The position numbers and the translations under genes were made by a program. A stretch of 64,000 nucleotides of DNA, from the NCBI RefSeq assembly GCF_016903815.1, contig NZ_CP069973.1; one strand, written 5' to 3'. Below, piece by piece: positions 12,938 to 13,066 of this stretch. The notes under the pieces were generated by a model. That model saw only the letters and a list, made by a program, of their open reading frames with translations, searched no databases and was not told the origin of the DNA. Source of the DNA: Escherichia coli (GTDB lineage Bacteria; Pseudomonadota; Gammaproteobacteria; Enterobacterales; Enterobacteriaceae). Every line of letters begins with the position of its first letter. The stretch's first letter is position 1.

Positions 12938-12955
12938 CAGAGGATTTTACTCATT

Positions 12956-13018
12956 CTGTTCATATCTGTTCATATTCTGCCGTAAGCCGTTCATCCTGAC
13001 CAGTGCCGCTGTTCATAT
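12956..13018. promoter_or_regulatory. Tor boxes (TorR binding sites) in torR-torC intergenic region
   Basis: Four decameric repeats: CTGTTCATAT x2 tandem, CCGTTCATCC, CTGTTCATAT. Confidence 0.85.
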
Positions 13019-13066
13019 TTACTCATTAAGATCGCTTCACTAAACCATAATTTTACAGGGGCTATT

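Follow-up and report, generated by a model that had tools for sequence, protein, structure and literature searches.

The four-box TorR operator in the divergent torR-torCAD control region of an Escherichia coli genome

The region between torR and torC is almost certainly the canonical TorR operator of E. coli, in which four decameric tor boxes of the same orientation lie in the divergent torR-torCAD control region. The window referred to throughout is the whole stretch of DNA that was analysed, 64 kb in length. The feature is already known, ordinary and explained, and no evidence contradicting its reading as a TorR operator was found in this analysis. What is added here is only a check of the geometry across genera and three natural variants. 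The region is a textbook operator of a two-component system; the value of the work is mostly correct annotation, and confirmation prevents the 10-bp tandem repeat from being taken in error for a new repeat array. Sequences, gene context, statistics and conservation are from the present analysis, TorR binding and activation are from the literature, and the promoter hexamers and start sites are predictions. The control region and its boxes are as follows.

12938..13066, 129 bp: torR-torC divergent intergenic region, the whole control region, from the torR start at 12937 (- strand) to the torC ATG at 13067
12956..12965, + strand: tor box 1, CTGTTCATAT, exact match, the same in K-12; distal member of the tandem pair that forms the high-affinity TorR site
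12966..12975, + strand: tor box 2, CTGTTCATAT, exact match, in tandem with box 1; overlaps the predicted torR -10 hexamer and start
12987..12996, + strand: tor box 3, CCGTTCATCC, pattern match; low-affinity 7/10 site
13009..13018, + strand: tor box 4, CTGTTCATAT, exact match; promoter-proximal, ending 8 bp upstream of the putative torC -10 hexamer

On the + strand the array reads ATT CTGTTCATAT CTGTTCATAT TCTGCCGTAAG CCGTTCATCC TGACCAGTGCCG CTGTTCATAT TTACTCATTAAGATCG, with start-to-start spacings of 10, 21 and 22 bp. Pattern searches recovered the four decamers of the torR-torC gap, two of them in tandem, exactly as the original prediction had written them. The range proposed there, 12941-13030, does bracket the boxes but is loose, the array proper occupying 12956-13018. 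Exact copies of CTGTTCATAT number three against 0.11 expected per window, a count reached in 0 of 100 shuffles, and a full scan of the 64 kb found no further 10/10 site on either strand. The array also holds four GTTCAT cores within 70 bp, the + strand maximum of a 64-kb scan in which the - strand reaches at most one per 70 bp. Box 3 taken alone is a 7/10 match and statistically unremarkable, as the window contains 410 sites with a score of exactly 7/10. It is accepted because of its position, its helical phasing and a GTTCA core that is invariant across five genera. A 9/10 match inside torA, CTGTTCATAC at 14862-14871 (- strand), was rejected as a tor box; it is isolated and within chance, with 0.8 sites expected for the degenerate pattern.

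The genes of the tor system, all of which carry a RefSeq annotation, surround the boxes.

12245..12937, - strand: torR, OmpR/PhoB-family response regulator that binds the boxes; full-length match to the TorR equivalog, NCBIfam NF008034
13067..17381, + strand: torCAD operon, the regulated target, with TorC and TorA equivalogs
13067-14239, + strand: torC, TorC equivalog above cut-off
14239-16785, + strand: torA, TorA equivalog above cut-off
16782-17381, + strand: torD
8417-11161, - strand: torS, sensor kinase, NCBIfam equivalog above cut-off
11244-12272, + strand: torT, periplasmic TMAO-binding protein, NCBIfam equivalog above cut-off

Against the curated cut-offs of the NCBIfam equivalogs, the scores are 428.7 bits for TorR (cut-off 275), 881 for TorC (455), 1618 for TorA (909), 496 for TorT (200) and 1893 for TorS (982). 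TorS, TorT and TorR are all full-length and above these cut-offs, so that the cognate signalling pathway is intact alongside the boxes. The gene order is hya-app-cspHG-yccM-torS-torT-torR on one side of the intergenic region and torC-torA-torD-IS1397-cbpMA on the other. The intergenic region itself is 60% A+T, compared with 50% for the 64-kb window. Residues 1-121 of TorR match the receiver domain structure PDB 1ZGZ (E 3.8e-73), the sole TorR entry found in a search of the PDB, which returned none of TorR with DNA. The PDB matches include relatives of TorR bound to direct-repeat DNA, namely KdpE-DNA (4KNY), PmrA/BasR-DNA (4S04) and PhoP-DNA (5ED4).

Several side observations concern the same neighbourhood. 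The coding sequences of torT and torR converge and share their final 28 bp (12245-12272), and the K-12 annotation has the same overlap (1057262-1057289). At 17464-18812, between torD and cbpM and approximately 80 bp past the torD stop, lies the transposase of IS1397, an IS3-family element; it has a programmed frameshift. It has been reported that the attachment site of phage HK022 lies in the torS-torT intergenic region (PMC6814406). This region, 11162-11243, is only 82 bp in the window, which indicates that the attachment site is unoccupied in this strain.

The 1.2 kb at 12200-13400 is 100% identical to E. coli strain 7/2 and to several other strains, and the 129-bp region is likewise 100% identical to strain 7/2. 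The RefSeq coordinates of that strain agree with those placed independently in the window for the tor genes and the IS1397 transposase. Compared with K-12 MG1655, the reference for tor boxes 1-4 (Simon et al. 1995, Mol Microbiol 17:971; Ansaldi et al. 2000, J Bacteriol 182:961), 125 of the 129 intergenic bases are the same. The four boxes are base-for-base identical, with the same decamers, order, orientation, spacing (10/21/22) and flanking genes and the same 129-bp length. The four single-base differences, given as window/K-12, all fall outside the boxes: 12944 A/G, 13021 A/G, 13053 T/C and 13062 C/T.

Of the 5426 complete E. coli genomes searched, 5416 carry the 129-bp region with an identity of at least 95%, and 5417 give a match to 12200-13400. 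Six of the torR-torC matches are on plasmid-labelled records, some genomes have two copies, and about 10 of the 5426 are without the region. Box number and offsets are constant in 5415 of the 5416 genomes that bear the region, the exception, OkiPb01695, being seen among 30 listed genomes that were sampled down the ranking of 5416 and being the sole partial match among those 30. In OkiPb01695 (NZ_AP042570.1 1236938-1237023) the torR-torC spacer is 86 bp. The spacer has lost 43 bp between boxes 2 and 4, which are identical, and with them box 3 and the putative torR promoter, so that two tandem boxes remain directly upstream of TAAGAT.

It is improbable that the array contains more than four sites, with additional degenerate TorR half-sites changing the regulatory logic. 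The suggestion draws on TTTACTCATT, of which an exact copy stands on either side of the array (12946-12955 and 13018-27), and on CGGTTCATCT inside torR (12902-12911, + strand), an 8/10 match that precedes box 1 by 54 bp, or about five turns of the helix. Providencia vermicola does possess a genuine fifth tandem unit, TTATTCACAT. The flanking TTTACTCATT matches the consensus at just 5/10, however, and is unconserved beyond Escherichia, K-12 already differing with TTTGCTCATT; a unit at 13019-13028 would moreover overlap the -10 hexamer. The copies of TTTACTCATT were therefore rejected as a fifth and sixth half-site. In K-12 and E. albertii the site within torR is CGGCTCATCT. Its codons specify V-E-D-E-P, a conserved motif of the receiver domain, so that coding constraint explains CGGTTCATCT, which was not accepted as a fifth box.

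The reading as a four-box TorR operator agrees with published binding data. The typical tor box is reported to be CTGTTCATAT, as in boxes 1, 2 and 4, and box 3 to be CCGTTCATCC (PMC9239176). The sequences in the window are those quoted in that paper, and the mismatch with published tor boxes that the original prediction named as counting against it was not found; as a comparison with published footprints this is an indirect one, made through secondary quotations. In EMSA, TorR binds boxes 1, 2 and 4 with a Kd of approximately 1-3 µM and gives no shift with box 3 alone (PMC9239176). Genomic SELEX of TorR, whether acetyl phosphate was present or not, yielded one peak in the whole genome, located in the torR/torC spacer (PMC5934670). 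A passage in PMC5294996, citing Ansaldi et al. 2000, states that phosphorylated and unphosphorylated TorR both bind the tor boxes in vivo. The 129-bp region serves in synthetic biology as a TorR-activated promoter under the name 'PtorCAD129' (PMC9436347). PMC10845959, PMC10662104 and PMC11727998 give no details of the operator. Together with the gene context and the K-12-identical boxes, this published binding bears out the original assignment to TorR.

A close known counterpart outside E. coli is the set of tor boxes of Salmonella enterica (PMC9239176), which has the same box sequences and geometry, with TorR binding to boxes 1, 2 and 4 and not to box 3 alone. The spacers and both untranslated leaders diverge from those of the window, and box 3 of S. 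arizonae is CCGTTCATTC.

Another protein might instead be the main user of the boxes, the candidates being ArcA and the DndCDE phosphorothioation complex (GTTC/GAAC), although this is very improbable. ArcA is the closest paralog of TorR and the second-best family match for TorR, at 216 bits. ArcA boxes are 11-bp direct repeats of TGTTA, whereas the tor boxes have a 10-bp spacing and TTCAT as their core. DndCDE has been found to bind the tor boxes and to compete with TorR in Salmonella Cerro 87 (PMC9239176). This competition depends on a dnd system, none of which is present among the RefSeq genes at window positions 1-50000, and it represents an overlay on TorR control rather than an alternative to it. 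The SELEX result also opposes both candidates, as TorR binds here and only here across the genome in vitro.

Two promoters are predicted to share the region with the tor boxes.

13027..13032, + strand: putative torC -10 hexamer TAAGAT; TAnnAT at a fixed +71 in 14/15 sequences, with a start predicted near 13039
12974..13002, - strand: putative torR promoter, with a -35 TGGTCA (13002-12997), a 17-nt spacer enclosing box 3 and a -10 CAGAAT (12979-12974)

There is no recognisable -35 element for torC. A promoter scan accordingly returned no torC site, as expected for an activator-dependent promoter. A start near 13039 would give a leader of approximately 28 nt with an AGGGG ribosome-binding site. 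For torR, consensus matching only places the probable start near 12967, inside box 2. The torR pair TGGTCA-17-CAGAAT scores 8/12, under the threshold of the scan. It is conserved in Escherichia, Salmonella, Edwardsiella and Providencia, with TAGTCA in Providencia alcalifaciens and a -10 of CAnAAT/CAATAT. That the predicted torR start falls within box 2 is consistent with the torR autoregulation reported by Ansaldi et al. 2000 (J Bacteriol 182:961), the second role that the original prediction had assigned to the array.

The sole site returned by the promoter scan is on the torR strand, TGAACA, 17 nt and TAAAAT at 12972-12944, a 9/12 sigma-70-like match. It depends on position 12944, which is A in the window and G in K-12, E. 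albertii and E. whittamii and which changes TAAAAC to TAAAAT on the torR strand. The A thus completes a lineage-specific, promoter-like second site for torR. Its predicted start coincides approximately with the A of the torR ATG; the resulting mRNA would be leaderless, and the site is overlain by boxes 1 and 2. It was rejected as the main torR promoter, since the -10 needs the lineage-specific base and K-12 and E. albertii read TAAAAC. No counterpart of TGAACA-17-TAAAAT was found in Salmonella, Edwardsiella or Providencia.

The operator can be placed in the following regulatory scheme. TMAO-TorT is reported to switch TorS to phosphorylate TorR (PMC6814406), so that TMAO on TorT would act through the TorS phosphorelay to give phosphorylated TorR. 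TorR is a winged-helix regulator of the OmpR/PhoB type and reads direct repeats. The work of Ansaldi and colleagues in 2000 is said to separate a high-affinity box1-box2 site from low-affinity boxes 3 and 4, and torR is reportedly subject to a negative autoregulation that is independent of TMAO. On that division, the tandem box1-box2 site would be filled regardless of the phosphorylation state of TorR. TorR bound there would block RNA polymerase at torR and so exert negative autoregulation, because box1-box2 overlies the predicted torR -10 hexamer and start.

Phosphorylated TorR would additionally occupy boxes 3 and 4, which at 21 and 43 bp from box 2 would present the same face of the helix. 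TorR would in this way be placed directly upstream of TAAGAT, a hexamer that has no -35 partner, which suggests that TorR substitutes for the -35 contact. RNA polymerase would then be recruited and torCAD, the operon for TMAO respiration, transcribed.

A similar arrangement is found in the pho boxes of PhoB and the F/C sites of OmpR, where a winged-helix regulator binds head-to-tail on direct repeats approximately 10-11 bp apart. In those operators a -35 element is lacking and the promoter-proximal site takes its place, immediately ahead of the -10, and high- and low-affinity sites are filled hierarchically. The tor array would share the direct-repeat binding, the -35 replacement and the affinity hierarchy. 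It differs in its TTCATAT core and in the layout of its units: strict tandem arrangement is confined to boxes 1 and 2, and boxes 3 and 4 stand singly, two helical turns apart. The TorR operator at torECAD of Shewanella oneidensis, from the work of Bordi et al. in 2004, is reportedly TTCATA-N4-TTCATA, a single tandem site. It would thus have the same TTCATA core and 10-bp tandem repeat as the window but a single site in place of the four-box array.

The box1-box2 20-mer CTGTTCATATCTGTTCATAT was searched for exactly in one genome per species across 100,044 species. Exact matches occur at 20 loci, 15 of which are flanked by divergent homologues of torR and torC. These 15 come from five genera: Escherichia (coli, albertii and whittamii), Salmonella, Edwardsiella, Providencia and Grimontia. 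The last of these belongs to the Vibrionaceae, and in Grimontia marina the array is kept although TorR is just 53% identical. Alignment of the 15 sequences gives invariant blocks at boxes 1 and 2, GTTCA in box 3, TTCATAT in box 4 and the TAnnAT hexamer; the conservation of boxes 1 and 2 is ascertained, since the search demanded exact copies, and hence is no independent evidence. Mean pairwise identity, calculated from one representative per genus for the five genera, is 0.75 for box 3, 0.86 for box 4 and 0.87 for the -10 hexamer. It is 0.51-0.59 for the spacers between and after the boxes and 0.34-0.37 for the two leader regions, with 0.34 for the 24 bp after the torC -10 hexamer. The pattern of boxes and -10 is a clear phylogenetic footprint.

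The geometry is equally constant. Fourteen of the 15 sequences have their boxes at 0/10/31/53 relative to box 1 and TAnnAT at +71. The exception is Providencia vermicola DSM 17385 (locus L010, 2151-2306, - strand), which has five boxes. Its box 2 is followed by a third tandem unit, TTATTCACAT, and box 3, box 4 and the -10 hexamer are displaced by exactly 10 bp, with TAnnAT at +81. As the extra unit is a whole 10 bp, helical phase is kept. An experiment on helical face, attributed to Simon in 1995 and to Ansaldi in 2000, is said to have found that the sites are needed on one face. The 0/10/31/53/+71 geometry across five genera independently supports this requirement and provides a confirmation, from sequence alone, of the published same-helical-face model.

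These data also bear on the idea that the boxes are a mini tandem repeat made by chance or slippage, with no regulatory role. Tandem Repeats Finder does report a period-10 array (12951-12975, 2.6 copies), although its score of 43 is below the default threshold of 50. The caution in the original prediction, that one might take the tandem repeats for a mini repeat array, was thus a fair one. The same 20-mer occurs in five unrelated MAGs with no tor genes nearby, and the OkiPb01695 deletion indicates that the repeats can recombine. Against this stand the three perfect copies, far above expectation, and the retention of position, orientation and spacing in five genera, as distant as Grimontia marina, while the spacers diverge. 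Near-universal presence in E. coli genomes and the experimental demonstration of TorR binding (PMC9239176, PMC5934670) also oppose it. Unlike the units of a minisatellite, only boxes 1 and 2 are head-to-tail copies, and both the number of copies and the offsets are constant from genus to genus. Statistics, conservation and binding data together effectively refute a functionless repeat, which retains hardly any probability beside the TorR operator.

The five remaining loci that match CTGTTCATATCTGTTCATAT are in MAGs of Bacteroidales, Lachnospiraceae, Clostridia and Synergistaceae (L005, L007, L011, L013 and L019), and the MAG of L007 has three tandem copies. No torR or torC was found near CTGTTCATATCTGTTCATAT in these five MAGs, and the loci were therefore treated as unrelated. 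Five matches exceed the approximately 0.5 expected under uniform base composition, and independent tandem duplications or composition are the likely causes.

Three natural variants of the array have been described above: the five boxes of P. vermicola, the two boxes left by the OkiPb01695 deletion and the promoter-like site completed by the G-to-A change at 12944. Cell-to-cell noise in torCAD expression is known. A rather doubtful but conceivable proposal is that the array is not frozen and changes by gain or loss of whole units with helical phase kept; if functional, such variants would offer natural means of tuning TorR dosage and torCAD noise. The rare forms, with five boxes, two boxes or a new -10-like hexamer, are candidates for studies of TorR dosage and of TMAO bet-hedging.

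An Rfam scan returned no RNA family inside the torR-torC intergenic region. Matches at the gathering score elsewhere in the window are unrelated to the boxes and comprise the cspA thermoregulator upstream of and within cspG (6289-6711, + strand), the Ysr251 antisense RNA opposite phoH (42153-42346, - strand), a tRNA (50651-50735, - strand) and the ES056 sRNA (56335-56426, - strand).
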